Part shown: piece after piece, positions 682-22,479 of the stretch
How positions within the stretch are numbered: position 1 is the first letter of the stretch
How the letters are laid out: the number at the start of each line of letters is the position of its first letter
Origin: an uncultured Nitrospiraceae bacterium
Lineage (GTDB): Bacteria > Nitrospirota > Nitrospiria > Nitrospirales > Nitrospiraceae
Length of the DNA stretch: 32,000 nucleotides
Reading direction: 5' to 3'
Assembly (NCBI GenBank): GCA_963821465.1
Contig: CAWGDV010000029.1
Location: forward strand, 392,597 to 424,596
The notes under the pieces: model-generated
Database searches by the model: none
The model's input: the letters and a program-made list of their open reading frames with translations, nothing else
What the model was told of the DNA's origin: nothing
Program-made: the position numbers and the translations under genes

Positions 682-746
682 AGAGTTTCTGAGATATACC
701 CACTACGAACCGTGAACTCTCCGCTCTTTCGTTCCCACACCGACCT

Positions 747-1256: not shown

Positions 1257-1849
1257 ATCGCGCTCCATCTCTGGCTCTCAGTCGCTTTAATCTGCCGGCT
1301 TGTCCTGTTCCTGTATCTCCTAGAATACAGAGTGTGCTGAATCAGATACCCTCTGCCCGATGCCTCGTCTATCCCGTTCGCCGGCCTAACCACATGTACT
1401 CAACGACTTACAACGCAGGCACCGGAAATTTTCACTGAGAAAATCCTGGTACAGGGGTTGCTATGTAGTTCTCCCATCATCCGACATCAGGGTGAGAGAG
1501 CGATGAATACACGCTGGAAGATTCTTGGCGAAGCGAACCGCCGGTGGGTCCCCACTCAAGAGGGTCATGCCTCTCACGCAGGTGGGACTACCTCTGGATT
1601 ATGCCCGTCCGGAGCCCTCCCACCGCCATGCGCTTCTGCCATCGGGGTCGCGTCCTGCCATTCGCAGCGGCGCGGCCCCTCCCCTTAATCTGACAGAAGC
1701 GAGGACTTACTTCATTTCAGAGCAACCTGGAAAGATACGCAATGTAGTGGACCGATCAGGCCGCTCCGAGTAATTCGACCAAGAAAGAGCACCGCGGGGC
1801 CCCTAGCCCGTCCTCCAGGCTGCGCAAGATTGGACAGCAACAGCCTCGA

Positions 1850-2158
1850 ATGGTCTGGCTAACCGTCAGCCTTTCTGGCGATCTTGTCGATCGTCTGCGC
1901 GATGCGGTGTATTGGAGCCCTAGCTTGAAACTCGCATGGCTGATCGCTCAGTCCCTACGGACTTCCATGACGGAAATGGAATCCTTGCGTCAAGGTCCCT
2001 TTCCAAAACGAACGAACGCGCTCCGAGCAGGACGGCCTCGATTGGTTGGTCAGACAATGAACGTATTCCCTCGATCCAGGCGCACCGGAATTGAGGCAGC
2101 CTGCTCGGCTGAGGGAATCACTCAGGTCATCCTTGCCTCACAACCGTCCATCGAGTGA
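1850..2158 (+). CDS. possible ribbon-helix-helix (ParG/CopG-like) DNA-binding protein
   Basis: The N-terminus LTVSLSGDLVDRLRDAVYWSPSLKLAWLIAQSLRTSMTEMESLRQGPFPKR fits the beta-strand plus two-helix RHH pattern of plasmid or ICE centromere-binding proteins. No clear SD; sits in an otherwise non-coding 1.2 kb stretch. Confidence 0.3.
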   Translation: MVWLTVSLSGDLVDRLRDAVYWSPSLKLAWLIAQSLRTSMTEMESLRQGPFPKRTNALRAGRPRLVGQTMNVFPRSRRTGIEAACSAEGITQVILASQPSIE

Positions 2159-2498
2159 TGGGATACCAGCGAATAGTTTCTTCGTCATTAGGGCGTAATC
2201 TCCACTATTATCTTCTGAATTTCCCTACTGCAATCGTCTGCCCATGAGCCTGTCGAAACGTATCGTTCCACTGAGTGAATTCCAGCGATTGCACCTTCGT
2301 CAGGGCGCCTGACCATCTACGGGTTTTGCTTCCATGCTTGGCATCGGCTCAGCCTCGCGGCTGTCAGCCTACTCCGAGACGACTGGAGAGACAGCCGGAT
2401 CGGCAGGTCGACATGTGGCCAAGCCAGTCTCTCCGATTGCAAATCGGCCTCCCGCTGCAGTAGCGTGGCCTGCATGTATTGGTGAGGGCGATTCGTCT

Positions 2499-3464
2499 AT
2501 GGTGACCGAGTTTGTCGTGACATCCGGCGAGGCGCCGAAACGGCTGGATATCTTTCTAGTCAATCGTGAGCCCAAGTTATCGCGGTCAGCCTTGCAACGG
2601 TTGATCGGGCAAGGGCGTGTGCGGATCAACGGTCAGGTCGTCAAGCCCAGTCAAAAGATCAAACCTGGCGACACGATCGCCTTTGACATTCCGAAAGCCG
2701 AACCGCTAGAACTCAGAGGCGAGTCGATTCCACTCGAGATTCTGTATGAGGACGACGTATTGTTACTCTTAAACAAGCCGGCCGGCCTGGTTGTCCACCC
2801 CGCGCCGGGTCATTGGGCCGGGACGTTGGTCAACGCTCTCCTTTATCATTTTCAGACCTCTGGAGGCACGGTCTCGACGATTGGCGGGAAAGAACGGCCA
2901 GGACTAGTTCATCGCCTGGACAAGGATACCTCCGGCGTGATGGTGATCGCCAAGACAGACGAAGCCCATCGAGCTCTTTCGGCTCAATTCAAACATCACA
3001 CAATCACGCGAGTGTATGAAGCCCTGATCTCAGGTGTGCCGAAAAAAGGACATGGGTTGATCGAGCTGCCGATTGGCCGTGACAGGAAGGAACGGAAAAA
3101 GTTTTCTGCCCACACGGCGCGCCCCAAGGAATCCGTGACGGAATACAATGTCGACCATCGCTTCGGAAAATTGGCGGCCCACGTGCTGCTCTACCCACGC
3201 ACAGGCCGGACTCACCAGCTCCGCGTGCATCTCGCTTCCTTGGGCCACCCCATTCTAGGAGACCAGACCTATGGGGGGAAGAAAGTCTGTACGGTCGAGG
3301 GAGTCGAGATTCCCCGCGTGATGTTGCATGCGAGGACCCTGGGCTTCCGCCACCCCTCCACTGGTGAGTTTCAGGAATATACAAAGCCTTTTCCATCCGA
3401 TATGGAGCAGGCCGTTGAGGCTCTTGATCGTCTTACGCCTCCTCAAGGCGCCAGAAAATCTTGA
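2499..3464 (+). CDS. rluD: RluA-family 23S rRNA pseudouridine synthase (RluD-like) with N-terminal S4 domain
   Basis: Catalytic motif HRLDKDTSGVMV, an S4-like N-terminus (RLDIFLV..LSRSALQRLI) and HQLRVH are present. Start moved to the ATG at 2499 (MVTEFVV), because the 55-aa extension from 2334 has no homology-like character. Confidence 0.9.
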   Translation: MVTEFVVTSGEAPKRLDIFLVNREPKLSRSALQRLIGQGRVRINGQVVKPSQKIKPGDTIAFDIPKAEPLELRGESIPLEILYEDDVLLLLNKPAGLVVHPAPGHWAGTLVNALLYHFQTSGGTVSTIGGKERPGLVHRLDKDTSGVMVIAKTDEAHRALSAQFKHHTITRVYEALISGVPKKGHGLIELPIGRDRKERKKFSAHTARPKESVTEYNVDHRFGKLAAHVLLYPRTGRTHQLRVHLASLGHPILGDQTYGGKKVCTVEGVEIPRVMLHARTLGFRHPSTGEFQEYTKPFPSDMEQAVEALDRLTPPQGARKS

Positions 3465-3511
3465 CAGGTCTCTCAACGTGGCGTAATCAATTCCGCTCGA
3501 AGGATGAGTTC

Positions 3512-3934
3512 ATGCAAACTGCCGATGTGCTGGACGCAATGGGTGGATTGGTTGCCCAATTGAAGACATATGCGTCCAAACTACCGCCCATTGTTCATCT
3601 GTCAGCTGTGCCGACCGGTGTGAAGCCCAACTATGAGGCGATCGAGGAGTATGAGGAGATTGTCTCCCGGTTCCGGAGTCAGAGCACCGGAACTCCCTAT
3701 AAAGGACTGAATGAATTATTTGTCGAATCGCTGGAAGCCTTCGAAGTTGGTCGATTGCTCGGTTGCGTTCACCCACTCCTCTCGGTGCTCGATCATCTTG
3801 AACGGATGCAGCGAGATCAAGAAATACAAGTCGGACGGACCGACTACGGGCGGATGGGCGAGTATCGATCCGCGCTGAATAAAATTCTACCCGGCAACAA
3901 GCCTGAATTGGACGGCGCTGGACGTGGGATGTAG
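3512..3934 (+). CDS. hypothetical protein
   Basis: 140-aa ORF. The ATG at 3512 is preceded by AAGGA 7 nt upstream. No recognisable domain. Confidence 0.5.
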   Translation: MQTADVLDAMGGLVAQLKTYASKLPPIVHLSAVPTGVKPNYEAIEEYEEIVSRFRSQSTGTPYKGLNELFVESLEAFEVGRLLGCVHPLLSVLDHLERMQRDQEIQVGRTDYGRMGEYRSALNKILPGNKPELDGAGRGM

Positions 3935-6180: not shown

Positions 6181-6532
6181 CGATCCTGTTCAGGAAAAGC
6201 GTTTCACCTGCTCTGTCAATGTACTCGCGACAAGCTGAAGATCGAACGGCCAGGTGTAACGGAGCTCGACCCTGGGATATTGCGGTCGCAGATGGTCGAA
6301 GATTTCGGGAATCTCAATCTCTGAGTGGGAGCCACCAGGCGTAAACATCGTCGTGGTTAGGGTAATGTGGGTTGCGCCGTTCTTAATCAGCTCCTCCACT
6401 GATTCCTCCAAGGTCGGCGCACAGAACTCGTTGTAGGCGACAGCAAACAGCACCTCCCCCAGGTTGGCTCGCAACTGAGCGGCCACCGCCTTAAGCCCCG
6501 ATCGATAGGGGTCCATTTCCGGTGTCCGAGAA
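6181..6532. repeat. copy A of a roughly 350-bp segmental duplication (partner 8662-9013)
   Basis: Both copies start at the same CGATCCTGTTCAGGAAAA.. boundary. The encoded peptides are about 90% identical. Confidence 0.8.
6190..6516 (-). pseudogene. 5'-truncated duplicate of the cbiX-like chelatase gene
   Basis: The 108 aa match residues 63-169 of the 8671-9180 product. The N-terminal about 60 aa, including the GHG motif, are missing, and the ATG here corresponds to ACG in the full copy. Confidence 0.7.
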
Positions 6533-6669: not shown

Positions 6670-7893
6670 TCAGGGCTTGTAATCGGTGTGTTCGGAGGGT
6701 TTACCCCCATGTGAGAACTGATGCATGAACGCGATCACCTGCCAGATCTGCTCTTCTGAGAGGTACGACTTCCAGGCCTTCATTGTCGTCTTTGGAACCC
6801 CTTCCGCCACTCGCCAGAACCAGTAGCTGTCTGAGAAACGGCGGATGTTTTTCTGGTCACGAAGCCCTCCCCCACTTTTTACCGGTTGACCGTCCTTATG
6901 GCAACTGCGGCAGCCCTCCGCGGAGTAAATCTGCCTTCCCTCCTCGATGACCTTAGGATCCGTCCACCAGCCAGCCGGCATATGTTTGTCGGCATAATCG
7001 GCCGGAACTGGGGCCAATGGCATTAGTTCCCCAGAGTACGCCATCCCTCCTGAAGGAGTCAGGACAGGATTCTTCGCACACCGGAACCCGCTGTTGAAGT
7101 TCCGGTACGACGGTGACTCATAGCTGGGGGATAACGGTAGGTTGAAGTCCCGGCGCGTGGATCGCAGGTGCTCCGGAGCGAGGTCCCACGAGCCGCCCCG
7201 CAACACTCTGTATTTACCATTTTCCGGCCCCTTCGGGTTCTGCGGCGGGCTGGTCGTGTAATAGTCCGGGTCATACCAGTCGCTCACCCATTCCCAGACA
7301 TTCCCCGCCAGATCATAGACCCCATAGGGGCTTCTGCCGTCTTTCAATTGCCCCACCGGCACCAGCGCGGTATGGTTGTTCCACTTCTCCTTCCCATAGT
7401 TCGCCCGAAGCGGATCGGGGGGTTCATTGCCCCAGGGATAGATCCGCCCATCCGTCCCCCGGGCCGCCTTCTCCCATTCCGCTTCCGTCGGCAGCCGCTT
7501 GCCGGCCCACTCGCAATAGGTGCTCGCATCCGACCAGTCGACATTCACGACCGGGCGCTTCTGATGGGGCGGCTGGTCCATGGTTGTCCACATCGGCGGC
7601 CCGTTCACGCCCCTGGCCTCCAGAAACTTCGCATACTGCCCGACCGTCACTTCATACTTGTCGATGTAATAGGCATCGAGAGAGACCCGATGGACGGGCT
7701 TTTCATCGTCACTACCCTCGTTGCTCCCCATCGTAAATTCCCCCGCCGGCACGAGCACCATCGGTGCCCCATCGTTACCAGTGATCTCCTGCTGCTGCGC
7801 CTGCGCTTGGCCTGCGACCCCAGCGACGAACGTGACAGCCATCAGCACACCGAGCACACTCACCCACCCCGGCCCCCGCTGCCTCATCCCCAT
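6670..7893 (-). CDS. periplasmic FGE-sulfatase (SUMF1/PvdO-type) domain protein fused to a C-terminal mono-haem cytochrome c domain
   Basis: Signal peptide MGMRQRGPGWVSVLGVLMAVTFVAGVAGQAQA. FGE-family motifs are [25 protein letters not shown] and GFRCAK. A CRSCH haem motif lies at 6898-6912 with a downstream Met (TTMKAW). Start at 7893 is preceded by AAGGAGGAG. Confidence 0.85.
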   Translation of the reverse strand: MGMRQRGPGWVSVLGVLMAVTFVAGVAGQAQAQQQEITGNDGAPMVLVPAGEFTMGSNEGSDDEKPVHRVSLDAYYIDKYEVTVGQYAKFLEARGVNGPPMWTTMDQPPHQKRPVVNVDWSDASTYCEWAGKRLPTEAEWEKAARGTDGRIYPWGNEPPDPLRANYGKEKWNNHTALVPVGQLKDGRSPYGVYDLAGNVWEWVSDWYDPDYYTTSPPQNPKGPENGKYRVLRGGSWDLAPEHLRSTRRDFNLPLSPSYESPSYRNFNSGFRCAKNPVLTPSGGMAYSGELMPLAPVPADYADKHMPAGWWTDPKVIEEGRQIYSAEGCRSCHKDGQPVKSGGGLRDQKNIRRFSDSYWFWRVAEGVPKTTMKAWKSYLSEEQIWQVIAFMHQFSHGGKPSEHTDYKP

Positions 7894-8096
7894 GCTTCTC
7901 CTCCTTGCCGGTTCGCCACCGGTCAACCTATCGTAAACCTGCTTGCTGTCACCCTCAACACTGCAAGCTTCCCGCAGCCCGTCCATTCGGTTACACAGTA
8001 CCGTGAGAATATGGCAGAACTGAATGCAGGACTGCGGGATAAAATCCCGCAACATTTCTTCCCGGAGGATCGATTCACGAGATCATCCACGCGGCG

Positions 8097-8661: not shown

Positions 8662-9013
8662 CGATCCTGTTCAGGAAAATCGTTTGACCTGCTCTGTCAA
8701 CGTGTTTGCGACAAGATTCAGATCGAACGGCCAGGCGTAACGGAGCTCGATCCCGGGATGCTGTGGCCGCAGATGATCGAGGATTTCAGGAATCTCAACC
8801 TCCGAGTGAGAACCGCCCGGCGTAAACATCGTCGTGGTGACGGTAATGTGGGTTGCGCCCTTCTTAATCAGCTCCTCCACGGATTCCTCCAAGGTCGGCG
8901 CACAGAACTCGTTGTAGGCCACCGCAAAGAGCACCTCTCCCAGGTTGGCTCGCAACTGAGCAGCCACCGCCTCAAGTCCTGATTGATAGGGGTCCGTCTC
9001 CGGCGTCCTCGGC
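8662..9013. repeat. copy B of the roughly 350-bp segmental duplication (partner 6181-6532)
   Basis: Covers the 3' two-thirds of the intact cbiX-like gene. Its left boundary abuts the IS3 relic. Confidence 0.8.
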
Positions 9014-9180
9014 CACTGGCGGATCTTGGTATCCAGCTCGACCTCTTCCGGCGAAGGAGGCATCTTCGCGTTACGCCGCTGAGCCTCCAACCGTTTCAGT
9101 TTCGTGACCAATTCCTGCGGAACACCCTTGGGAATACCGCCGTGACCAACTAGAATCACTCCTCGTGTCGTGGTCGCCAT
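8671..9180 (-). CDS. cbiX: CbiX(S)-type sirohydrochlorin chelatase
   Basis: 169 aa with ILVGHGG near the N-terminus and TPGGSHSEVEIPE, characteristic of small CbiX/SirB chelatases. Confidence 0.8.
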   Translation of the reverse strand: MATTTRGVILVGHGGIPKGVPQELVTKLKRLEAQRRNAKMPPSPEEVELDTKIRQWPRTPETDPYQSGLEAVAAQLRANLGEVLFAVAYNEFCAPTLEESVEELIKKGATHITVTTTMFTPGGSHSEVEIPEILDHLRPQHPGIELRYAWPFDLNLVANTLTEQVKRFS

Positions 9181-9225
9181 CTCATTACCCCTCTTGTTGA
9201 TACTCGCGCCCGGTTACACTCATAT

Positions 9226-9591
9226 TCAGCCCGTCGTCGCCTCCAGATATTCCTGTAAATTGGTCTTGCCGTAGCGACTGTCCTGGTACACTTTTCGAAT
9301 AAATCCTGCCACCAAAGCCATCACCTTTTTCACCGCGGGGGTCTTCTCAGGATCTGTGGCCGGCAAGAGACGGACGGTGATCGCCTTCTCGTGAAGCTTG
9401 AGCTGGACAAAGAAGGTGCACGGAACCCCGTTTTCGATCGCAACCGAATCCAGCAGCGCCTCTTTGCCGCTCCGTGCGAGAAAGAACTCCTGGACTTTGA
9501 GGATCTCGCTCCCCGCCCGATGAATGATCGGTGTGAAGGCCTGATATAAGCCCTGCAGATCCCCGGCTTCTTCTATGACAACATGCGGCAT
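9226..9591 (-). CDS. hypothetical protein
   Basis: 121-aa ORF starting 12 nt after the ybgA-like stop and ending 45 nt before cbiX. No recognisable domain. Confidence 0.6.
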   Translation of the reverse strand: MPHVVIEEAGDLQGLYQAFTPIIHRAGSEILKVQEFFLARSGKEALLDSVAIENGVPCTFFVQLKLHEKAITVRLLPATDPEKTPAVKKVMALVAGFIRKVYQDSRYGKTNLQEYLEATTG

Positions 9592-9603
9592 GTTTCTTCC
9601 TTT

Positions 9604-10557
9604 CTACACATGATTGCGCAACATGAGTTCCTTCGGATGCGGATTGAGATAGACCTGATCACGAATGTAGCCGACATCGAAGATCTGGACGTAGTGTTTG
9701 ATCAGCGTCAGAGGGACAACCAAGGGCGTGAGCTCCTGATGATAATCACCGATCACGCCCAATAGCTCGGCTTTCTCGTGAGCGCCGAGCCGCCCCTTGA
9801 AATACCCCAGGATGTGTTGGAGTACGTTCACATGTTTGCGCACCGTCGCTTTCACGGCCAATGCCTTCATGAACAGTTCCCCGTATCGGTGAGCGAGCTC
9901 CTTGGGACGGTGCTGATGCGCCTGACCGACCAGCCGCCCAAGCACCTCGCATTGCTGCGGACTATGGGCCAACAGTAAATATTTATGGACCATGTGGAAC
10001 TGCATCAGAGCCTGCCTCGTGACGCCACTCTGCACGAGATCCTGCCAGCGGCGGTAACAGAAGACTCGCTCGATAAAATTCTCCCTGAGCGTAGGCTCGC
10101 AGAGCCGCCCCTCTTCCTCAACCGGAATCAGCGGAAACTGTTCGATAAAGGCCCGAGCAAATAGTCCGACTCCGTTCCGGCTGGGTATTCCATGCTCATT
10201 GTAGAGACGAACTCGCTCGATCCCGCAGCTCGGCGAGCCTTTCTTAAATACGTACCCGGATAAATCCAAACTCTTAAGTCCCTCGATACGATGCGTGGCC
10301 ATCGTCTCTAGTGCGCGCGTGTGATCTGTCCCACTCTTGATCGTCACGAGCCGTGGATTCTGAAGATCGCCGACCAATCGCATCGCCTCGCGAGGAGTGC
10401 CCAGTCCTGCCTCAACCTCCGGACAGACCGGGACCCACTCCACATAGCGGCCAAACACATCGGTCAGAAAACTGTCCCGCTTATGTCCCCCATCGAACCG
10501 GACTTCGTCTCCGATGAGGCAACGGCTGATCCCAAGACGGAGCGCCACGGTCGTCAT
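9604..10557 (-). CDS. YbgA-like DUF523/DUF1722 protein
   Basis: The N-terminal DUF523 pattern (GISRCLIGDEVRFDGGHK..VPVCPEV) is followed by the DUF1722 helical part (..HYLLLAHSPQ..). The ATG at 10557 overlaps the photolyase stop (ATGA), so the start was moved from 10650. Confidence 0.85.
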   Translation of the reverse strand: MTTVALRLGISRCLIGDEVRFDGGHKRDSFLTDVFGRYVEWVPVCPEVEAGLGTPREAMRLVGDLQNPRLVTIKSGTDHTRALETMATHRIEGLKSLDLSGYVFKKGSPSCGIERVRLYNEHGIPSRNGVGLFARAFIEQFPLIPVEEEGRLCEPTLRENFIERVFCYRRWQDLVQSGVTRQALMQFHMVHKYLLLAHSPQQCEVLGRLVGQAHQHRPKELAHRYGELFMKALAVKATVRKHVNVLQHILGYFKGRLGAHEKAELLGVIGDYHQELTPLVVPLTLIKHYVQIFDVGYIRDQVYLNPHPKELMLRNHV

Positions 10558-12002
10558 CTCGTCACCAGTTGCTTGCCAAGGGCTAAATACTCCTCGCGGG
10601 CTTGCCGGTGATCCACGATGGGCGAAGAATAGTCTGTGCCGATACGGCATCCCGCCAGGGTCTGTTCTTCCTGGGTCATCAGATGCGGCGCATGAATCCG
10701 GTCAGTCGGAACGCCTGCAAGCTCCGGCACATACTGCCGAATGTACGCGCCGTCGGGATCGAACTTCCTGCTCTGCAGCATAGGATTGAAAATTCTGTAC
10801 CCCGGCATGGAGTCCGTCCCGGTCGAGGAGGCCCATTGCCAATTGCCGTTATTGGCCGCAAGGTCGGCATCGACCAGTTGCTGCATGAAATAGCGCTCTC
10901 CGCTTTGCCAATCGATGCGAAGATCTTTGATGAGAAACGACGCCACGACCATCCGCACGCGATTGTGCATCCATCCGGTCTGGTTCAACTGCCGCATGCC
11001 TGCATCCACCAGCGGATAACCGGTTCGTCCGTCACACCAGGCGGCATAGAGCCGATTCCACTCCGCTCCCGCCGGACGGGGTCTCGGCAGTCCGTCCTTG
11101 CTTCGGAACGGACCGGAGACCACTTGTGGAAACGCGGACAAGATTTGTTGGAAAAACTCACGCCAGATCAATTCATCGATCCAGGTGAGCACGTCGCGCC
11201 GCGATACGCGGCCTCCTGCCGCGAACGTGCCTAAGGCCGCATGCACGGCGGTTCGCACCGAGAGAGTTCCGAACCGGAAGTGGGGGGACAGTTTGGATGT
11301 CCCGTCGATCGCGGGGAGATTCCGTCCTTTAACGTACCTGTGAATGGGGCCATTAAGAAACCAGCGAAGCCGTCGCTGCGATTCCTTCTCTCCCGGTTTG
11401 ATGAACAAGGGGGCTGTCTGATAGCCGAGATCTTCCACCGTCGGTAGCGCGATCCGGTGTGACAAAGCACCGGAGCGCTGGACTCGCAGCCTGACGGCGG
11501 AGGGAAGGAGCGGCGGAGTCGCGGCGTGCCACTTGGTCCACCACCGGGCACGATAGGCGCTGTATCGCTGCAAAGGATCTCCCGTCGATCCTCTGATCTC
11601 TTCGGCCTCGAAGACCACATGGTCCTTGTACGTGTGGACCGCCACACCACGGGTCATCAGCGCCTGCTGGACTTTCCGATCTCGCTCGATCGCCGCCGGC
11701 TCGTAATCGCGATTCCAATAGACCGCATCGGCCTTGACGTCCGCGACGAAACGGATCACCTCCTCGATTTGATTCCCCCGGCGCCACTGCAGGGCCAGTC
11801 CTAGAACGGCCAGGGCACCGGCAAGCTCGTCGAGACAGGAGAGCATGAACGTCACGCAGGGCGAGCCAAACTGCCGTGAGCGCAAGAGGGGATCGTCAAA
11901 TACGAAGAGAGGAATGACGTCGTCGCAATTTGCGCAGGCGGCAGTGAGTGCCGGTTGGTCCTGCAGCCGTAGGTCCCGTCTGATCCAGACAACCCCTCTC
12001 AT
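10554..12002 (-). CDS. phr: deoxyribodipyrimidine (CPD) photolyase
   Basis: N-terminus VWIRRDLRLQDQPAL and the FAD-binding region TGYPLVDAGMRQL..GWMHNRVRMVVASFL..DADLAANNGNWQW are present. SD GGAGGA lies upstream. Confidence 0.9.
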   Translation of the reverse strand: MRGVVWIRRDLRLQDQPALTAACANCDDVIPLFVFDDPLLRSRQFGSPCVTFMLSCLDELAGALAVLGLALQWRRGNQIEEVIRFVADVKADAVYWNRDYEPAAIERDRKVQQALMTRGVAVHTYKDHVVFEAEEIRGSTGDPLQRYSAYRARWWTKWHAATPPLLPSAVRLRVQRSGALSHRIALPTVEDLGYQTAPLFIKPGEKESQRRLRWFLNGPIHRYVKGRNLPAIDGTSKLSPHFRFGTLSVRTAVHAALGTFAAGGRVSRRDVLTWIDELIWREFFQQILSAFPQVVSGPFRSKDGLPRPRPAGAEWNRLYAAWCDGRTGYPLVDAGMRQLNQTGWMHNRVRMVVASFLIKDLRIDWQSGERYFMQQLVDADLAANNGNWQWASSTGTDSMPGYRIFNPMLQSRKFDPDGAYIRQYVPELAGVPTDRIHAPHLMTQEEQTLAGCRIGTDYSSPIVDHRQAREEYLALGKQLVTR

Positions 12003-12256: not shown

Positions 12257-12844
12257 TCACTGTATACTTCCCGTGCGCCAATTCCGCAGCCACTTCGATC
12301 GTATAAGCCTGTACCCGAGCCAGGCCACGAGCAGCACTCCTAGCAGTGGGCCTGCCACGGTGCGCACCAGCTTCTGATAATCGGTCATCTGTACCCGCAA
12401 GAGATACTGCGGGCGCCGCATCAGATTCTGCTTCTCCGTCGCAATGATGACCGTATACAGGCCCTCGTCCAGCCGGGCTTCGCCCCGGAGCACGCCGTCT
12501 GGGTGGGTACTCGGACGAATATCTGCCACAATCTCACCTTCTGCCTCATTGCTCCAGTTACCCTTCACTACCCTCATGCCGACCGGCTCGTTGCGCAACT
12601 CTGGGTCCACGAGGTCCACGACCAGGAAGGTGTCGCCATTCTTTGGAATATCTGTGCAGTATTGGTCTTTCAACTGGTATTGCGGCTGATAGGCGCTGAA
12701 ATGCACCACGCGCTCACCGACTTGGCGCAAGCAGGGGTCGTCTTCTCCGCTCGCTGTCCCATGTGCCGCGGCTATGTCGGGGTGGTAGAGTGCTACTACA
12801 AGAATGAGTGCCATAGAGCTTGCCTGTGTGACTTGCCTAATCAT
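12257..12844 (-). CDS. exported hypothetical protein with C-terminal membrane anchor
   Basis: 195-aa ORF with a signal-like N-terminus and a C-terminal TM (GPLLGVLLVAWLGY). Its start overlaps the PDZ gene stop (ATGA at 12841-12844). Confidence 0.6.
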   Translation of the reverse strand: MIRQVTQASSMALILVVALYHPDIAAAHGTASGEDDPCLRQVGERVVHFSAYQPQYQLKDQYCTDIPKNGDTFLVVDLVDPELRNEPVGMRVVKGNWSNEAEGEIVADIRPSTHPDGVLRGEARLDEGLYTVIIATEKQNLMRRPQYLLRVQMTDYQKLVRTVAGPLLGVLLVAWLGYRLIRSKWLRNWRTGSIQ

Positions 12845-13442: not shown

Positions 13443-14357
13443 TTATCCCTTCGTCATGATCGCCCGCAAGGCCGGTTCCAGTGTCGGGTAGTGAAAGATG
13501 TATCCCCCGGCGAGCGCCTTCCCCGGACTAACCCGTTGGCCCGTGGTCATGAGCGTCCCCAGTTCACCCAGTGCCAGGTGTAATGCGAAACCCGGCACGG
13601 GCAGCCAGGATGGCCGGTGGAGGACTCGTCCGAGTACCTCACAGAAGGTGTTCATCGTCACAGCCTCTGGAGCCACCGCATTGAGGGGACCAGCGACGCT
13701 CGGCGTCGTGAGTACCCACTGGATCAGACCGATGTGATCACCTCGATGGATCCACGACACCCACTGAGTTCCCGGCATGACCGGGCCGCCCGCAAAGAGC
13801 TGGAACGGCAACAGCATCTTCGGCAAGGCACCGCCGTCTTGCTCGAGCACCATCCCGGTCCGCAACATGACGACTCGCACACCGAATTCCGCAGCCCGAA
13901 GCGCCTCCGCTTCCCATGCAAGACAGAGATCGGCCAGAAAGCCTTGGCCGCGAACGGCGCCCTCATCCAATATACGATCGTCGCTGGGCCCGTAGTAGCC
14001 GATACCGGAGGCGCTGATCAGCGTACACGATTTCGAGGACCGGCGAGACAGGGCTTCTACCAGTAGATGAGTGGTGAGGACCCGGCTTTCCGTGAGGAGG
14101 TGCTTACGGGTATCAGTCCAGCGCTCATCGGCAATCGGCGCACCGGCCAGATTGATGACGGCATCGGCACCTTCGAGACAGTGCTCCCATCCTCCCGCAT
14201 TCTGGCCATTCCACTCGACGACCGTGACGTTTGAGCCACAGGACCGTTGCGCTTGAATCCTTCTCGTGAGGAGGGTGATCCGATGGCCCTCCTGACAGAG
14301 AGCGGCACATAAGGGCCGACCGATGAACCCCGTTCCGCCGGTAATAACAATCTGCAT
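13443..14357 (-). CDS. TIGR01777 (YfcH/SDR39U1-like) epimerase-family protein with DUF1731 C-terminus
   Basis: Rossmann motif ITGGTGFIGRPL, 304 aa in length, with a C-terminal ..GQRVSPGKALAGGYIFHYPTLEPAL typical of this family. Confidence 0.85.
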   Translation of the reverse strand: MQIVITGGTGFIGRPLCAALCQEGHRITLLTRRIQAQRSCGSNVTVVEWNGQNAGGWEHCLEGADAVINLAGAPIADERWTDTRKHLLTESRVLTTHLLVEALSRRSSKSCTLISASGIGYYGPSDDRILDEGAVRGQGFLADLCLAWEAEALRAAEFGVRVVMLRTGMVLEQDGGALPKMLLPFQLFAGGPVMPGTQWVSWIHRGDHIGLIQWVLTTPSVAGPLNAVAPEAVTMNTFCEVLGRVLHRPSWLPVPGFALHLALGELGTLMTTGQRVSPGKALAGGYIFHYPTLEPALRAIMTKG

Positions 14358-14402: not shown

Positions 14403-14726
14403 CTAGTCGCCGTGCTGCTTGTCGCTCCCATGGCCGTTCCGATCTTGCCCCTCTGACATATCTCGATCTACCCGTTGAGCATACTTTCGCTGCTTCACGC
14501 CGTGTAAGAGATCCGGCATCGGGTTCAATCGGTTCTGAAGAATGACCGGGTCGATGACCTCGCCACAACTGGTGCAACGCACACCCGTGATGCCGATTTG
14601 ACCAGTATCGTCTTGGAGGTCCAGGTAATACTCCTTGATCATCAATCCCCCGCAACGCGTGCAGGTGCCTTCGCCGGCTTGCGAAGTGGAGCGTGGACGA
14701 TTGTCTGGTCTCCCATTCGATTCCAC
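14403..14726 (-). CDS. small C4 zinc-ribbon protein, uncharacterised family (paralog of 21127-21423)
   Basis: CTRCGGLMIKEYYLDLQDDTGQIGITGVRCTSCGEVIDPVILQNR aligns residue-for-residue with the second copy (CxxC-x22-CxxC). The frame choice is supported by this conservation. The SD is weak. Confidence 0.7.
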   Translation of the reverse strand: MESNGRPDNRPRSTSQAGEGTCTRCGGLMIKEYYLDLQDDTGQIGITGVRCTSCGEVIDPVILQNRLNPMPDLLHGVKQRKYAQRVDRDMSEGQDRNGHGSDKQHGD

Positions 14727-14894: not shown

Positions 14895-15005
14895 GCTGCC
14901 CTCCTCACCATCTGTCCTCTCGCTAATATCCCAACCGGGTGGTTGGCGGCCCTGCTCTCCGGCATCCGGAGCGCGGGACCAGCCCACCGCAACCAACGGC
15001 CTGAC

Positions 15006-15806
15006 TTAGTACGGGATCACGTGCAAGCAGTCCTTGCTCTCGTTGTTCCAGACCACATCGCACAGGTTCGACATGCGCGCCACAATCTGCGCCGCCACGC
15101 CGCCCGTCCCGCCAAACAACCCGCACCAGCCCAAGGTCACAAAGCCCCAGTGCAACGGCGCGGCAAAGAGTTCATCGACAAACCAGAACGCATGCCCCCA
15201 CTCGTTGAGTCCCACGTTGGGCAGAATCATCATCGGCCCCACGATCGCCCCCACCAAGGGGAACGAGACCGCCTTGCTGAACTGCGGCAGCCGGGTCATG
15301 GCATACAGATAGCTCGCCACGCCACAGGTGATGTACAGCGGGAAGGTGAAGTAGAACGCGATGATATGGCTGGCGGTGAAGCTCGTATCGCGGATGATCA
15401 CCTGATGCCACGACGCGTCCTGCTCCAGGGTGTAGCTCCCCGCCCAATAGACGCCGAACACGTACAGCGCGAGCCACATCATCCAGTAGAAATACCGCTT
15501 GAGTTCGGTCTTGGGATCCACGTTGGCCACGTTGCGATCCCGCGTGCTCCAAATCCATCCCAAGGTCGCGGACGCGAAGATGATGTTGGAAATCACGTTA
15601 AACCGCCACAGGCCCATCCAGACATTCTCGAACTCCGGCGTCATGGAGTCCAAGCCGTGGGAGTAGCCGAAGACGCGCTGAAAGACGACTTCGGAGCCCA
15701 CCGCCGCCAACATGGCAAACCAGCCGATCTTGAGGGGCCTGGAATCGTACCAGAGCGACATATCATAGCCCCGGTCTGACCCTCCCCACGTTGTTGTACT
15801 CGCCAT
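15006..15806 (-). CDS. amoC: ammonia monooxygenase subunit C (orphan copy, no amoA/amoB adjacent)
   Basis: Long collinear matches to AmoC/PmoC: [84 protein letters not shown]. Confidence 0.95.
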
Positions 15807-15824
15807 ACCCTAACCTCCTTGTTA

Positions 15825-15841
15825 AGTGATTGAAAATCACT
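15825..15841. promoter_or_regulatory. perfect 7-3-7 palindrome in the amoC 5' leader
   Basis: On the coding strand AGTGATT-TTC-AATCACT lies 7 nt upstream of the amoC SD. It could be an operator or a leader RNA hairpin. Confidence 0.35.
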
Positions 15842-15930
15842 GCGTATTGAGACCCACTCCCCATCTCATCACTGCCGACAGTCCCGCTCCTTCATTCTTG
15901 TCACCCCCTTTCGTGGCTCACCGAGCAGAC

Positions 15931-15999
15931 AGGCCCCTCCGGGGTGTAGGGAGGGGCCTATCTACCTCAGCGGGAGGCGCCGTGCGGAGTCGCGGCGCC
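15931..15999 (-). terminator. two tandem GC-rich hairpins separating the upstream FGE-like gene from amoC
   Basis: AGGCCCCTCC (15931-40) pairs with GGAGGGGCCT (15950-59), and GGCGCCG (15976-82) pairs with CGGCGCC (15993-99). No U-tract, so terminator function is inferred only. Confidence 0.4.
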
Positions 16000-16075
16000 C
16001 ACCAAGACTGGGAAAAGAAACCGGCCTCCGTATCTTTGCTGTGGTCATCTGGTTTCATCGTACTCACCACTTCGT

Positions 16076-16921
16076 CTACTTCTGTTGGGTCTGGCCCTCG
16101 AGACCCCGTGCACAGCGAAAGCCTGTACCATGGGTCTGCAGCGCGAATCCGCCGCGCCCGCGCGCCGTCGTCGTGATGTCCGAGATCGGGCTATGCCAAG
16201 ACCCACCGCGAATCGATCGGACCACGCCTTTTTTCTCAGGACCCTGCGGATTCCGATCCGGCGCATGCTGGTAGTACTCAGCGTCATACCAATCCTGCAC
16301 CCACTCTCGAGCATTACCGGACAGGTCCTTCACCCCGTAGGGTGAGTCGCCGTCGGGCAAGGACCCGACCGGATGCAATGTGTGCTCCTCCTCCCACTCA
16401 CGGTCAAAGTTCGCCCGCTTCGATGTCGCTGGTTCATTGCCCCAAGGAAAGAGACGACCATCGGTGCCGCGAGCGGCCTTCTCCCATTCCGCTTCCGTCG
16501 GGAGCCGCTTCTTGGCCCAACTGCAATAGGCCTTGGCGTCGTACCAGGTAGTCTGCACGACCGGAAGCTGTTCGATTCCCTTCACGGACAGGAGCGGGCC
16601 TGTGCCATAGGGATTCGGAGGGCTTCGATGGCCCGTGGTCGCAACGAACGCCAGATACCGTGCATTCGTCACTTCGACTTGATCGATCGCAAACTCGTCG
16701 AGGTACACAGATCGCTGCGGCCACTCATCTGCCCGGCCTTTTCCTTCCGGATTCCCCATCAAGAATTCTCCAGCCGGAATCGTCACCATGGGGACCGGGT
16801 CAACCTCTTTGGGAACCGGCGGCGCTGCGACGACAGGCGCGATGGCGACGGCACAGACTAGGGCCATCATCGCAACAATAGTGCTCCAGCGAGTTCCTCT
16901 TCTCCTCAGACCTTGCGTCAT
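16076..16921 (-). CDS. periplasmic FGE-sulfatase (SUMF1/PvdO-type) domain protein
   Basis: Start at 16921 (MTQGLRRRGTRWSTIVAMMALVCAVA, signal peptide) overlaps the upstream stop (ATGA). Motifs [25 protein letters not shown] and GFRCAR are present. Confidence 0.85.
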   Translation of the reverse strand: MTQGLRRRGTRWSTIVAMMALVCAVAIAPVVAAPPVPKEVDPVPMVTIPAGEFLMGNPEGKGRADEWPQRSVYLDEFAIDQVEVTNARYLAFVATTGHRSPPNPYGTGPLLSVKGIEQLPVVQTTWYDAKAYCSWAKKRLPTEAEWEKAARGTDGRLFPWGNEPATSKRANFDREWEEEHTLHPVGSLPDGDSPYGVKDLSGNAREWVQDWYDAEYYQHAPDRNPQGPEKKGVVRSIRGGSWHSPISDITTTARGRGGFALQTHGTGFRCARGLEGQTQQK

Positions 16922-17339: not shown

Positions 17340-18398
17340 TCACGGCCGCTTCATCGATTGCTCAATCAACTGTTGAAGCTCCAAGAGTTCCGCATTCTTT
17401 GGATCAATGGCCAGTCCCTTGGTGACGGCCTGTTGGGCCTCCGCAAACCGTTCTCGTCCCATTTCCACCAAGGTAGCGATGTAGCTGTCCCGAATCTGCT
17501 GTTCGATTTCTGGTGGGGCGGTCTTGGCACAGCGTAAGCCCAAGCCCACGCCGTAGCTGTTATTGAGCGGGTGATTCCAGAACCGGTGCGTCGCCTTGAC
17601 CGTGCCTTCTGGCGCGATCCATGATCCGCCACGAATAACCCGCTTTTCACCAACCGTGAGCCGGTCCACATAGGTGCCGGTGCCACCCATCCATACGGGT
17701 TTTGCCGGACCGGTCGGATTCACCATGGGTTCAAGCTTTCCATAGTAGCGGGGGTCATACCAGTCAGCGACCCACTCGAAAACATTGCCGGCCATGTTAT
17801 ACAGACCATAATAACTGGCTCCCTCCGGATAGGAATCCACCGGCATGGTCGCATCGTGATTCTTGCCATAGTTGGCTTTGGCTGAATCGAAGTCATTGCC
17901 CCAGGGGTAGAGGTTGGCCTGGGGACCACGAGCCGCCTTCTCCCATTCCGCCTCCGTCGGAAGGCGTTTACCGCGATATTCACAGAAGGCTGTGGCATCC
18001 TCCCAATTCACTCCGACCACCGGCTGTTGCGGCTTATTCAAGCGGGGATCGTCCCAGTAGGCAGGGGCCGGATGACCTTTCGCCTTGATGAACTGGCCAT
18101 AGTCCTTGTTTGAAACTTCGTACGTATCCATGAGGTATGCATCCAAGAACACCATATGCGCTGGACCTTCGTCACGTAACGCCTCGGCCGACCAGGGTGT
18201 CTTCATCCGTCGGTCGTACGGTGTAGGTTTTTTACCTGAGTCCACAGGCTCTTCCTTATCGACCCCCATCACCGATGCTCCATGCGCGATGTACGCCATG
18301 TCTTTCGGGATCAAGGACTCCTCCGCACGGACTGGTGCAGGCAATAGTATGAATCCCGCCGCCAGTGTCGCGAGCACAATGACTTGTGCCGTATGCAT
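17340..18398 (-). CDS. periplasmic FGE-sulfatase domain protein with C-terminal TPR-like helical tail
   Basis: Start at 18398 (MHTAQVIVLATLAAGFILLPAPVRA) is preceded by GGAGG. Motifs [25 protein letters not shown] and GLRCAK are present. The tail is ..FAEAQQAVTKGLAIDPKNAELLELQQLIE. Confidence 0.85.
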   Translation of the reverse strand: MHTAQVIVLATLAAGFILLPAPVRAEESLIPKDMAYIAHGASVMGVDKEEPVDSGKKPTPYDRRMKTPWSAEALRDEGPAHMVFLDAYLMDTYEVSNKDYGQFIKAKGHPAPAYWDDPRLNKPQQPVVGVNWEDATAFCEYRGKRLPTEAEWEKAARGPQANLYPWGNDFDSAKANYGKNHDATMPVDSYPEGASYYGLYNMAGNVFEWVADWYDPRYYGKLEPMVNPTGPAKPVWMGGTGTYVDRLTVGEKRVIRGGSWIAPEGTVKATHRFWNHPLNNSYGVGLGLRCAKTAPPEIEQQIRDSYIATLVEMGRERFAEAQQAVTKGLAIDPKNAELLELQQLIEQSMKRP

Positions 18399-18473
18399 TT
18401 CGGACCTCCACCACAAGTTAGTTTTCTGATAGAGCAACCTCGCCGCCTCCACTCCCCCCATACGCAGTTCGGT

Positions 18474-20100: not shown

Positions 20101-21068
20101 CTAGTTCTTCTTCATGCTCTTCTTGATCAGATCGCGTGTCGCGAGGTATTCCTTGTTGCCAGGCTCCGCAGCCAACGCCTTCTCGATGGAGGACATCGCA
20201 TCGGCGTTCTTCTCAGCGCCCATCGCGACTAATGCCTGAATGAACGCATCGCGGCCTGCTTGCATGGCTTCATCGGAAACCGCCTGTGCCGACTTCGCGC
20301 AACGGAACCCGAGGCCGACCCCATAGGAGTTATTCTCCGGCTGATTCCAGAACCGATGGCTCGTATGGAGGGAGGTTTCCGGCGCGAGCCAGGAACCGCC
20401 GCGCAGCACCCTCACCGGGCCTTGATTGGCAAAGTTGTAGCCCTTCTCGGCGCCAGGTGGATTCAAGGCAGGGCTCTCCTTATAGTATTTCAGGTCATAC
20501 CAATCCTCGACCCACTCGAAGACGTTCCCTGCCATGTTATAGACCCCAAACCCGCTGATCCCTTCTGGATAGGAATCCACCGGCGGTGGTACGACCAACA
20601 TTCTGCCCATAGTTGGCTTTCTTCGGGTCGAGTGTATGGCCCCAGGGATAATGGTTGTCGCCTTGCGGACCTTTTGCCGCTCGCTCCCATTCTGCTTCCG
20701 TCGGAAGCCGCTTGCCTTCCCACTTGCAGAACGCGCTTGCATCATTCCAATCTACGCCGACCACCGGCTGATCGGCCTTACTCAGTCGAGGATCATCCCA
20801 ATAGGCCGGGGCCGGGTGACCGCTGGCTTTCATAAATTCTTTGTACCGCTGTGTTCGAGGCTTCAAACTTGTCGATCAGATAGGCATCGAGCACGACCTG
20901 GTGCTTGGCTTCATCTGAATGTTCATTGCTCCCCATGGTGAACTCGCCCTTTGGGATCAGCACCATGTCCTTATCGCTGTTCGGCATGTCCGCCGCTGTT
21001 GCGACAGTGATGGCTCCTGCCATCAATGCCACCCCCAATCCGACCTGAAGCACTCTGTAACTCCTCAT
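20101..21068 (-). pseudogene. FGE-sulfatase domain gene (closest to 17340-18398) broken by two frameshifts
   Basis: Homology runs through three frames (ORFs 20793-21095, 20537-20866, 20101-20745). The shifts lie near 20846-20848 (GCGG where GCG fits) and near 20585-20595. A signal peptide, [25 protein letters not shown] and GFRCAK are all retained. Confidence 0.8.
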
Positions 21069-21126
21069 AGGACACCCCCCTTGGTTTTGGAACACCAGGA
21101 CGATCCTGGTTGGTTAATAACTACCA

Positions 21127-21423
21127 CTATGAGCAGTTCGTTACGCAATTGTTTTGATATATTCTCCCTGCAAGCTGAACTGTGGTCGAATCTTGCCGGA
21201 GCTGCCGATTGTGCAGAATGACGGAATCGACAACCTCACCACACTGCACACAGCGTTTCGCCGCAATCTCAGACTCCCCGATGTTTCCGAGTACATCCAG
21301 GCAGAAGTCCTGAACCATGAGTCCGCCGCATCTGGTGCACGTCGATTCATGTTGGGCTGTGGAAGATGCCGTGTGATTCTCGCTCGGTTCATTGTTCGTT
21401 TTCACCGTCAACGCTCTTGCCAT
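21127..21423 (-). CDS. small C4 zinc-ribbon protein, uncharacterised family (paralog of 14403-14726)
   Basis: CTRCGGLMVQDFCLDVLGNIGESEIAAKRCVQCGEVVDSVILHNR. The ATG at 21423 is preceded by TGGAGGT. It is the first gene of the minus-strand train and is divergent from the MerR/B12 regulator. Confidence 0.7.
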   Translation of the reverse strand: MARALTVKTNNEPSENHTASSTAQHESTCTRCGGLMVQDFCLDVLGNIGESEIAAKRCVQCGEVVDSVILHNRQLRQDSTTVQLAGRIYQNNCVTNCS

Positions 21424-21465
21424 GGCTACCTCCATAGGTTTTTTGTTTAATGTTTGTAATAAGTA

Positions 21466-21537
21466 TGTCCAATGTATAAACCATTTTGTCCAATGTGTCA
21501 AGTGTTATTGTAAAATATATTTGACAAACATTAGACA
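21466..21537. promoter_or_regulatory. three copies of a 10-bp box, ACATT(G/A)GACA, overlapping both divergent promoters (candidate operator)
   Basis: TGTCCAATGT occurs at 21466-21475 and at 21487-21496, giving a 21-bp periodicity. The inverted copy ACATTAGACA lies at 21528-21537, a 9/10 match. Each promoter has a box abutting its -35 hexamer, and one box covers the minus-strand -10. Confidence 0.5.
21473..21501 (-). promoter_or_regulatory. sigma70-like promoter for the zinc-ribbon gene
   Basis: The minus strand reads TTGACA (21501-21496), a 17-nt spacer and TATACA (21478-21473), about 50 nt upstream of the ATG at 21423. Confidence 0.5.
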
Positions 21538-21549
21538 TTACAATACAAT
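21521..21549 (+). promoter_or_regulatory. near-consensus sigma70 promoter for the MerR/B12 regulator gene
   Basis: TTGACA (21521-26), a 17-nt spacer and TACAAT (21544-49). The ATG at 21562 follows with a very short leader and no SD. Confidence 0.55.
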
Positions 21550-21561
21550 GAAAATGTAAAT

Positions 21562-22479
21562 ATGAATATTCATAGAATTCATAGAGTTGCAAAACTCACT
21601 GGCCTCTCAAAAGATGTCATCCGGGTATGGGAGCGCCGGTTTGGACTCTTAAAACCGACTAGAGGAGCCAATCGTTATCGTAATTACTCCGATGAGGATG
21701 TCACGTTGCTGAGGTTCCTGAAGGAGCAGCTGGATGCCGGAAGCTCTATCGGAGAGCTGGCGAAATTAGGGCGTGAGGAGTTGTTGGGGCGAGCACGAGC
21801 CAGCGCGCCGCGAGTGTCCTTCGTCGACAATACATTCAGCAGGCTCCTGCGGGAACTACTGTCCACGCTGAATCCCTTCGATCGTGTGATCTTTGAAAAG
21901 CGTTTGAACGGCGCCGTTGCGGTTGTTCCGTTTGAGGAGGCACTTCACGGGATCTTGCTCCCGCTTCAGGAGCAGGTCGGGCAGTTGTGGCATGAGGGCC
22001 ATGTGAATGTAGCCCTCGAACATTACGTCACGAAGCAAATTCAACAGAAGATTTTCTCGGCCATGAATCAGCTCCCAGTCGCTGAGTTTGGCGCCAAAGT
22101 GATCGTGGCCTGCCCGCCCGGTGAAGAACACGACATTGCTGCATTGGCGGTTGCGTATCGATGTCGTGTTCGTGGCTGCCGAGTCTACTATTTGGGGGCC
22201 AACGTGCCCATTGCCTCGCTGACTAACCTCTGTGATAAGGTGAAGCCGGACTTGACTATCATTTCCTTTCCACTCGCGCTTCCTGAAGCCAACGCGGCGG
22301 CGCTGGTCCAATCCCTCACACATGAGGTGGTTCCGGCCTCGCGTCTCGCCGTCGGAGGACATGGCGCGCTCGCCATGCGTGACCTTTTCGTGAAATCTAA
22401 TATTGAGATCGTGGAAGACTTTGCCGACTTGGATGTCATGCTGGATCGATTCATGCGGCAGTCCTTATCCCGAGGGTAG
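21562..22479 (+). CDS. MerR-family regulator with C-terminal cobalamin-binding domain (CarH/LitR-type candidate photoreceptor)
   Basis: MerR HTH RVAKLTGLSKDVIRVWERRFGLLKPTR..RYRNYSDEDV. Wx9EH motif WHEGHVNVALEH at 21988-22023. B12-binding Rossmann segment VIVACPPGEEHDIAALAVAY with His at 22126-22128. Confidence 0.85.
   Translation: MNIHRIHRVAKLTGLSKDVIRVWERRFGLLKPTRGANRYRNYSDEDVTLLRFLKEQLDAGSSIGELAKLGREELLGRARASAPRVSFVDNTFSRLLRELLSTLNPFDRVIFEKRLNGAVAVVPFEEALHGILLPLQEQVGQLWHEGHVNVALEHYVTKQIQQKIFSAMNQLPVAEFGAKVIVACPPGEEHDIAALAVAYRCRVRGCRVYYLGANVPIASLTNLCDKVKPDLTIISFPLALPEANAAALVQSLTHEVVPASRLAVGGHGALAMRDLFVKSNIEIVEDFADLDVMLDRFMRQSLSRG

Follow-up and report, generated by a model that had tools for sequence, protein, structure and literature searches.

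An additional, unaltered amoC copy outside the amoCAB operon of clade B comammox Nitrospira

A gene for AmoC, a subunit of ammonia monooxygenase (AMO), stands alone in a 32-kb stretch of DNA from an uncultured Nitrospiraceae bacterium (32,000 nucleotides (nt), positions 392,597 to 424,596 of contig CAWGDV010000029.1, GenBank assembly GCA_963821465.1; referred to below as the window), and it is probably a functional additional gene copy of the canonical AmoC subunit of clade B comammox Nitrospira. This gene, hereafter the orphan amoC, is intact, is preceded by a conserved ribosome-binding site, and has been retained at its site across species. The original prediction, which was made from the sequence without database searches, described it as a divergent amoC with no amoA or amoB nearby. 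That observation was confirmed in part, and the interpretation given to it was supported in part: the gene is indeed an isolated amoC, and the protein that it encodes is the same as that of the operon.

The coding sequence (CDS; 15006..15806, minus strand) is an ATG-initiated open reading frame (ORF) of 266 amino acids (aa), of the canonical clade B comammox type, in which all motifs quoted in the original prediction, as well as the C-terminal tail, were found. It matched the Pfam AmoC family (PF04896) with 352 bits (E=2e-105; cutoff 26.7) over profile positions 5-244 of 245, and it passed the NCBIfam models NF041641 (AmoC_BACT; 342.8 bits, cutoff 319) and TIGR03078 (337.4 bits, cutoff 280.6). 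Two copper-ligand motifs are intact, namely EQD-x3-H-x12-H (from residue 128) and N-x3-H-x13-H (from residue 201), which we take, from structural knowledge of particulate methane monooxygenase (pMMO) and AMO, to be the CuC (Asp, His, His) and CuD (Asn, His, His) sites. Both motifs were retained in every complete AmoC copy examined (87/87). Linkage to amoA and amoB is typical of the AmoC/PmoC family, although it is no requirement, as singletons are known. A tblastn search with AmoA and AmoB of a clade B operon (L001, verified by Pfam) detected neither gene in the 32-kb window at E<=1e-10, and when the threshold was relaxed to E<=10 the best match in the window covered just 41 aa (E=0.12), so that the reported isolation of the gene stands.

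The closest relatives of the orphan AmoC were found in Nitrospira metagenome-assembled genomes (MAGs), including 'Rifle_cladeB' RCB and CG24A/C/E, at 88-98% aa identity, whereas AmoC of clade A comammox bacteria (RCA, LAS72, BLG_1) shared 76-78% with it; the window was therefore assigned to clade B. AmoA and AmoB of the clade B operon are only 54-61% identical to those of clade A. Among GTDB species representatives no close match to the window was found, with the best flanks reaching approximately 82-86% nt identity. Five contigs from long-read metagenomes in the European Nucleotide Archive (ENA), labelled L083, L085, L087, L089 and L090, matched the window at 98.3-99.0% nt identity over 20.8 kb.

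An exact-protein look-up recovered the identical 266-aa AmoC on 22 contigs, which represent three locus types. One is the arrangement of the window itself, as seen in the five long-read contigs just named. Another is the canonical operon amoC-amoA-amoB (L082, L086 and L088), with three 195-aa genes, copC, copD and an IS1595 transposase gene ahead of it. At the third locus (L081 and L084) amoC is again an orphan and lies between a CBS-domain gene and rmuC. All three locus types occur together in one sample, ERZ25039492, as L089 (window type), L088 (operon) and L084 (third type).

These comparisons bear directly on the claim that the first 90 or so residues and the C-terminal tail of the orphan AmoC are divergent, and on the related explanation that the gene is a neofunctionalised paralog similar to amoC3, with altered termini and a role apart from the operonic subunit. 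Against the solved AmoC chain of an ammonia-oxidising bacterium (AOB), 9leg_C, the orphan AmoC shows 53% identity at residues 5-90 and 72% at residues 91-250, and relative to betaproteobacterial AOB (beta-AOB) the core is better conserved than either the first 90 residues or the tail. The same N-terminal gradient is, however, present between clade A and clade B operonic copies (~70% vs 83%). Over residues 1-90 the orphan AmoC shares 91-100% identity with operonic AmoC proteins of clade B, including those of other species, and its tail recurs unchanged in virtually all clade B copies, whether operonic or not. Residues 5-262 also align to the solved bacterial AmoC chains 9leg_C, 9pxf_G and 9cl6_C with a single 2-residue indel. 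The low N-terminal identity to AOB thus reflects a family-wide gradient, and the N-terminus and tail are traits of all clade B comammox AmoC proteins; the divergence had been judged against beta-AOB sequences.

A near-identical duplicate of the operonic gene, the very finding that the original prediction had set against its own reading, was recovered: the orphan AmoC is 100% identical to the operonic AmoC of L082, L086 and L088 from the same samples. Divergence of the protein from the operonic AmoC of the same genome, by which an amoC3-like gene would be recognised, was not seen, with 0 aa differences in the same samples. Phylogenetic placement, which the original prediction had proposed, gave the same answer. 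In a neighbour-joining tree of 70 clade B copies, two diverged orphan lineages were resolved, one formed by the second copy of tandem pairs and the other by a type designated 'U1', and the orphan amoC lies in neither. It lies in the operon-type clade, in which copies are grouped by genome, and there it clusters with operonic amoC from its own population. Orphan lineages that have truly diverged do therefore exist in clade B (92-95% aa identity, with synonymous divergence (dS) of 0.2-0.9), which speaks in favor of such a paralog in principle; for the gene in the window, a divergent paralog was ruled out by the protein identity with the operon copies and by the position in the operon-type clade. 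We regard the neofunctionalised-paralog explanation as already refuted and give it a very small probability.

The nucleotide comparisons indicate how an unaltered protein may have been maintained at this locus. The operon loci align to window positions 14911-15848 at 96.4-97.2% nt identity by megablast, and the shared segment ends there; it consists of a 42-bp leader with the Shine-Dalgarno sequence, the CDS, and a 95-bp stretch with homology to the amoC-amoA spacer. At the third locus, the orphan one of the L081/L084 type, just 27 bp are shared upstream. Among the exact-match loci, the number of synonymous differences between locus types (2-16) did not exceed that between strains at one locus (4-12). 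Figures for selection and conversion were drawn from copies in GTDB MAGs, which were retrieved independently, by similarity. Locus contexts were classed by explicit markers, single-linkage clustering of flanks being too coarse, with tandem copies and amoAB merging clusters.

Clade B genomes carry 3-5 amoC copies at approximately four conserved locus types, some copies being homogenised with the operon copy and others representing older paralog lineages. The paralogs within GTDB MAG genomes were of two classes, one near-identical to the operon copy (dS <=0.09, nonsynonymous divergence (dN) ~0) and one older (dS 0.2-0.9, 92-95% aa identity). The window-type copy L006, for example, differs from the operon copy of its own genome, L011, by 9 synonymous and 1 nonsynonymous changes, and window-type copies group in the tree with the operonic amoC of the respective genome. 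At least six other clade B species carry amoC at the window-type site, with conserved synteny. Between species, the amoC at this site shows dS values of 0.47-0.57, comparable figures for the flanking yfcH gene being 0.40-0.54, whereas inside one genome the window-type and operon copies are separated by a dS of only 0.06-0.10. The site is thus older than the species, while the amoC that it contains tracks the resident operon copy. Because divergence is so low within genomes and so much higher between species, gene conversion is indicated. The ratio of nonsynonymous to synonymous divergence between species (omega) was ~0.02 for amoC and ~0.19 for yfcH, and together the data indicate both gene conversion and strong purifying selection on the orphan amoC.

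Several further observations were made on amoC loci of clade B. Tandem amoC pairs are present in L002, L005, L018 and L019, each made up of an amoC homogenised with that of the operon and an amoC from a conserved lineage that has diverged. Diverged U1-type loci include L026, L030, L034, L040, L044, L050 and others, and in MFD02134.bin.2.198 even the amoC of the U1 site has been overwritten by the operon type. In L017 (RSF48; positions 1-3860), the upstream flank of the window type, with its FGE gene and a hairpin element described below, is joined directly to amoC-amoA-amoB, which suggests either that copies have recombined or that short reads were assembled into a chimera at the repeat. A transposase gene of the IS1595 family lies directly upstream of amoCAB in L082, L086 and L088 (at ~8862-9770), which represent the population of the window, and in L001 (8853-9665; MAG MFD06229). 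A transposase beside amoCAB was reported earlier for RCB and Nitrospira inopinata (PMC6852473).

We propose that a cassette comprising the 42-bp leader with its ribosome-binding site, the CDS and the 95-bp amoC-amoA spacer would have been copied from the amoCAB operon to a separate chromosomal site, and that this insertion site is common to several clade B species. Within each genome, gene conversion may keep the orphan copy nearly identical to the operonic amoC, while strong purifying selection would remove amino-acid changes from the orphan AmoC; in the population of the window, the orphan, operon and third orphan copies would then all encode one AmoC protein. As the proteins are identical across loci, the product of the orphan locus can only be the AmoC of AMO, and this identity to the operonic subunit suggests that it would become part of active AMO. 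Since the loci have the protein in common but share only the 42-bp leader and 95-bp trailer around its gene, any contribution specific to the locus would have to lie in transcriptional control or dosage. The orphan copy may thus be a source of AmoC under separate regulation that serves to assemble or repair AMO, for instance following stress or starvation; a role of this kind is what has generally been suggested for singleton amoC genes.

A number of points weigh against this proposal. That the orphan amoC is active and differentially regulated is something that we infer. A consensus scan of the 269-bp spacer upstream of amoC found no sigma-70-type promoter. Co-occurrence of the three loci in one genome is deduced from their presence in the same sample and not from a closed chromosome. 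The absence of nonsynonymous differences among the exact-match loci (dN=0) is true by construction, as these were retrieved by exact match, and it was left unused as evidence of selection; part of the constraint on amoC may, moreover, have been imported from the operon copy by gene conversion. Finally, in L057, a syntenic window-type locus from the same bin as L006, the amoC (10001-10897) is seemingly frameshifted near its 3' end, which means either that the orphan copy can be lost or that the assembly is in error.

It may be asked whether the copy has any site-specific regulatory role at all. A cassette that spreads as a selectively neutral by-product and is homogenised by recombination, with at most an effect on dosage, would account for the many insertion contexts, the tandem pairs and the transposase beside the operon; recombination between copies, such as that suggested by L017, and the presence of a window-type copy in some clade B species but not, as far as seen, in others are also in keeping with it. 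However, the same site is filled in at least seven species whose flanks have diverged to a dS of ~0.5, and the ORF, Shine-Dalgarno sequence and ligands have remained intact. Long retention of this kind argues for usefulness, though gene conversion could also repair decay, and on balance we consider neutrality unlikely. Much less probable still is that the gene is not truly at this locus and was placed there by a chimeric join at the repeated 0.9-kb amoC segment. Such artefacts are a concern for a multi-copy gene, and suspicious joins were seen in short-read MAGs (L017, L007, L029); but the same arrangement recurs in five long-read assemblies that are independent of one another (contigs of 68-655 kb) and in six other species, and an artefact is scarcely credible.

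The sequences that surround the orphan amoC were examined for signals that might support separate regulation. The 42-bp leader common to the operonic copy (15807..15848, minus strand) contains the Shine-Dalgarno sequence AAGGAGG (15814-15820) and the conserved motif GTGGGTCTCAAT; the motif GGTGGKTCTCAAT is kept just upstream of the Shine-Dalgarno sequence in most clade B amoC copies. A palindrome in the leader had been put forward in the original prediction as a hook for experiments. It probably corresponds to a perfect 7-bp inverted repeat that does exist there (AGTGATT-ttc-AATCACT, 15825..15841, minus strand). This repeat does not serve as a hook, for it is at chance level: 1.4 kb of sequence contains 7 inverted repeats of 7 nt or longer. 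The palindromic form of this site was found only in the species of the window, the operon leader and other species not being palindromic there, and the palindrome was rejected as a regulatory site on these grounds. Downstream, the 95-bp trailer homologous to the amoC-amoA spacer (14911..15005, minus strand, by megablast extent) contains an imperfect GC-rich hairpin at 14948-14980 with 15-nt arms and 80% complementarity. A search for a canonical terminator around amoC gave a sole terminator-like match, on the wrong strand and within the CDS.

Further upstream lies a conserved non-coding element of ~140 nt (15865..16005, minus strand), which is conserved across window-type loci and consists of a short hairpin (15976-15999), a ~20-bp hairpin (15920-15971) and a box, ACTGTCGGCAGTGATGAG (15865-15882). 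In approximately ten other clade B loci (L034:3784-3979, L035:5739-5876, L044:3973-4183 and others), paralogous copies of this element lie upstream of a PmoD/AmoD-like gene and have a zinc-ribbon paralog on their other side. At the clade A locus L078 a copy (2111-2185) follows the FGE ortholog, and no amoC is present there. RNAalifold predicted 25 pairs for the element, with 98.2% of cells paired compared with 40-57% for slid partners. Pairing is kept mainly through one-sided G-U/G-C/A-U changes, which favors an RNA on the amoC-sense strand. A two-sided compensatory change was seen in 1 pair only, and shuffle controls gave 2-5/500, a level attainable from relatedness alone, so that the support from covariation is only suggestive. 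A search of the leader and window against Rfam returned no match at the gathering threshold or at E<=1. In L006, L009 and L020 an amoD/E-like gene still directly follows amoC, which makes it plausible that the amoC cassette was inserted behind a pre-existing intercistronic or leader structure of an amoD/E-like gene.

The orphan amoC is part of a co-directional run of genes on the minus strand that extends over ~15 kb, from ~21.4 kb to 6.7 kb of the window. The run includes several FGE-like genes, a gene for an NmrA/DUF2867 protein, amoC, a zinc-ribbon gene, a YfcH-like short-chain dehydrogenase/reductase (SDR) gene, a PDZ protein gene, a PmoD-like gene, a DNA photolyase gene, a YbgA-like DUF1722 gene and CbiX. 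The genes reported on either side of amoC were borne out: immediately upstream is an FGE-sulfatase-like gene (16076..16921, minus strand; Pfam FGE-sulfatase, 183.6 bits; 281 aa in sibling contigs), and downstream is a zinc-ribbon gene of the form CxxC...CxxC (14403..14726, minus strand), whose match to Pfam Zn_Ribbon_TF is weak (23 bits, below the cutoff). The zinc-ribbon protein shares 64-88% aa identity with its counterparts in syntenic loci and 41-50% with paralogs at other amoC-linked loci. It is followed by a YfcH/ThyD-like gene of the SDR epimerase family (13443..14357, minus strand; NCBIfam TIGR01777, 328.8 bits, above the cutoff).

Further along the run is a gene resembling PmoD, AmoD and AmoE (12257..12844, minus strand), which encodes 195 aa with a hydrophobic C-terminal stretch. 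Residues 37-95 of its product match the periplasmic domain of PmoD (PDB 6cpd, E=5.7e-6), and no match to it was found among Pfam and NCBIfam models. PmoD-like paralogs, 73-83% identical and, more weakly, 26-32% identical, are located upstream of amoCAB in L001, L003, L004, L010 and L013, and one of the three tandem 195-aa genes ahead of copC and copD in L082, L086 and L088 is 86-88% identical to it at the nt level. On the basis of the similarity to PmoD and of the paralogs beside amoCAB-copCD, the gene was placed in the PmoD/AmoD/AmoE family. An orphan amoD/E-like gene thus shares the gene run with the orphan amoC, and in L006, L009 and L020 its ortholog comes immediately behind amoC. The photolyase gene (10554..12002, minus strand; Pfam FAD_binding_7, 281.6 bits, and DNA_photolyase, 135.4 bits) comes next, and after it the YbgA-like DUF1722 gene (9604-10650, minus strand; Pfam DUF1722, 140.6 bits).

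Other features of the window were also noted. Four FGE-sulfatase-like paralogs lie on the minus strand within 15 kb (6670-8055, 16076-16921, 17340-18461 and 20101-21095). The first of these is fused to a c-type cytochrome domain, and in the last, two 1-bp insertions (~20586 and ~20851) break the gene up into three ORFs that overlap. This last gene is intact, with 316 aa, in L083, L085 and L089; the split represents either a strain-specific pseudogene or indel errors of the assembly. Two stretches of ~347 bp, 6181-6527 and 8662-9008, cross-match each other's counterparts in sibling contigs at ~88% identity. The latter lies inside a CbiX-like gene (8671-9180) and the former matches a second CbiX-like gene of the sibling contigs, which points to a local duplication of the CbiX-like gene.

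The original prediction had held the genomic context itself to be of interest. This remains so to some extent, but for another reason than the one given, namely the photolyase gene and a regulator divergent from the amoC gene run. The regulator gene (21562..22479, plus strand) encodes a CarH/LitR-like protein with Pfam MerR_1, B12-binding and B12-binding_2 domains. It aligned with Thermus CarH/LitR (5c8d, 3whp) over residues 3-269 (E=1e-27); in the alignment with Thermus LitR 3whp, Wx9EH and the B12-ligand His (ExH) are conserved, and CarH 5c8d scores alike. In the NCBIfam CarH equivalog test the protein scored 126 bits, below the cutoff of 400, and it is best described as a relative of the CarH family, not an equivalog. 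Between this gene and the run lies an AT-rich divergent promoter region (21427..21561), which the regulator shares with a second zinc-ribbon gene (21127-21426, minus strand). The repeat TGTCYAATGT, a candidate operator, is present there at 21466, 21487 and 21528, the last inverted; the window has 5 copies against 1.7 expected, and 3 of the 5 are in this region. Loci of both clade B and clade A have kept the divergent region with these repeats. The carH promoter, TTGACA-17-TACAAT, is an 11/12 match to sigma-70, and one TGTCYAATGT lies in its spacer; a promoter TTGACA-N17-TATACA on the opposite strand of the region is our own reading only. A Thermus-type CarH operator, three 11-bp direct repeats of the consensus nAnnTnnACAn, gave no match with 3 or fewer mismatches and was rejected for this regulator, the different repeat TGTCYAATGT occurring there three times.

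These features raise the attractive possibility that the orphan amoC belongs to a regulon for light or photo-oxidative stress, that is, a run controlled by a B12-dependent photoreceptor-repressor of the CarH/LitR type. Light would then de-repress a spare AmoC alongside photolyase and thereby allow photo-inactivated AMO to be rebuilt; such control would refine, and not replace, the independently regulated AmoC supply proposed above. The full-length alignment of the regulator with Thermus CarH/LitR and its conserved Wx9EH and His ligand are consistent with this, as are its position divergent from the ~15-kb run that holds amoC, the photolyase gene, the YbgA-like gene and SDR genes, the conserved TGTCYAATGT repeats of the divergent promoter region, including that in the spacer of the 11/12 carH promoter, and the lack of a sigma-70 promoter of amoC's own in the scanned upstream spacer. 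In L014 and L022, amoC directly follows the gene that opens the run, at a distance of only 0.2-0.5 kb. Photolyase and SDR genes are common members of LitR regulons (PMC9758184), and the comammox bacterium N. inopinata is photoinhibited, with light-inactivated AMO requiring de novo synthesis (PMC9797979).

On the other side, 5.6 kb and five genes separate amoC from the carH-divergent promoter, with two strong and conserved hairpins immediately in front of amoC. The regulator does not reach the NCBIfam CarH cutoff, no Thermus-type operator is present, and no TGTCYAATGT was found near amoC, exact copies being confined to the carH divergent promoter. In clade A, membership of amoC in a carH operon was ruled out by a convergent gene that lies between the two, and the orphan amoC is found only in the vicinity. 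For several clade B genomes, the 80 loci retained included no amoC copy with these flanks, and in the literature searched no paper was found that ties amoC to photolyase in Nitrospira. Control of the run by light is therefore doubtful in our estimate, though not negligible. We consider at the low end of that estimate, and hence improbable, the fuller proposal that a spare, unaltered AmoC is wired into a CarH/LitR-controlled unit together with photolyase, YbgA-like, SDR and PmoD/AmoD-like genes, behind a structured leader shared with amoD/E-like genes, such that light or photo-oxidative stress would trigger re-synthesis of AmoC.

Near-identical duplicated amo and pmo copies in AOB and methanotrophs are maintained by concerted evolution, and there whole operons are duplicated. 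The orphan amoC resembles these duplicates in that paralogs within a genome are far closer than orthologs between species; it differs in that only a cassette of ~0.94 kb, amoC with short flanks, has been copied. Stand-alone amoC genes of this kind are already known, and public assemblies already contain this protein sequence. At least one non-operonal amoC is carried by every comammox and beta-AOB genome, and in AOB the singleton has been linked to stress response (PMC6311188), which bears out the statement in the original prediction that additional amoC copies are known from ammonia oxidisers. The orphan amoC of the window, which stands without amoA and amoB in addition to an amoCAB operon, differs from them in nothing essential and is one of them. 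Like amoC3 of Nitrosomonas europaea, it is a singleton outside the operon, and for amoC3 a supply of AmoC in stress and recovery has been proposed (Berube and Stahl 2012, cited in PMC6311188). However, amoC3, as that review describes it, encodes a divergent protein under sigma-32 control, whereas the protein encoded here is identical to the operonic AmoC. The regulator, in turn, shares with the class I LitR/CarH repressors that depend on adenosylcobalamin the MerR helix-turn-helix and B12-binding domains, Wx9EH and the His ligand, as well as a divergent run with photolyase and SDR genes (PMC9758184); its operator is unlike the Thermus type, and in the literature searched no amoC was reported in such a regulon. 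Control of amoC by this regulator is put forward here as a hypothesis.

As a feature, the orphan amoC is routine, since an extra non-operonal amoC is documented in every comammox genome and this one is no sequence variant. The identity of the proteins confines any special role of a singleton amoC in this lineage to regulation or dosage and excludes one for a changed subunit. With 3-5 copies per clade B genome and gene conversion between them, amoC is a poor marker for abundance or phylogeny, and its repeats can cause mis-joined contigs in short-read MAGs. The CarH/photolyase neighbourhood and the conserved hairpin element offer a modest and speculative upside, with light suggested as a condition of interest. 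If true, a spare AmoC wired to light would be a molecular link between the photoinhibition of nitrifiers and the repair of AMO.

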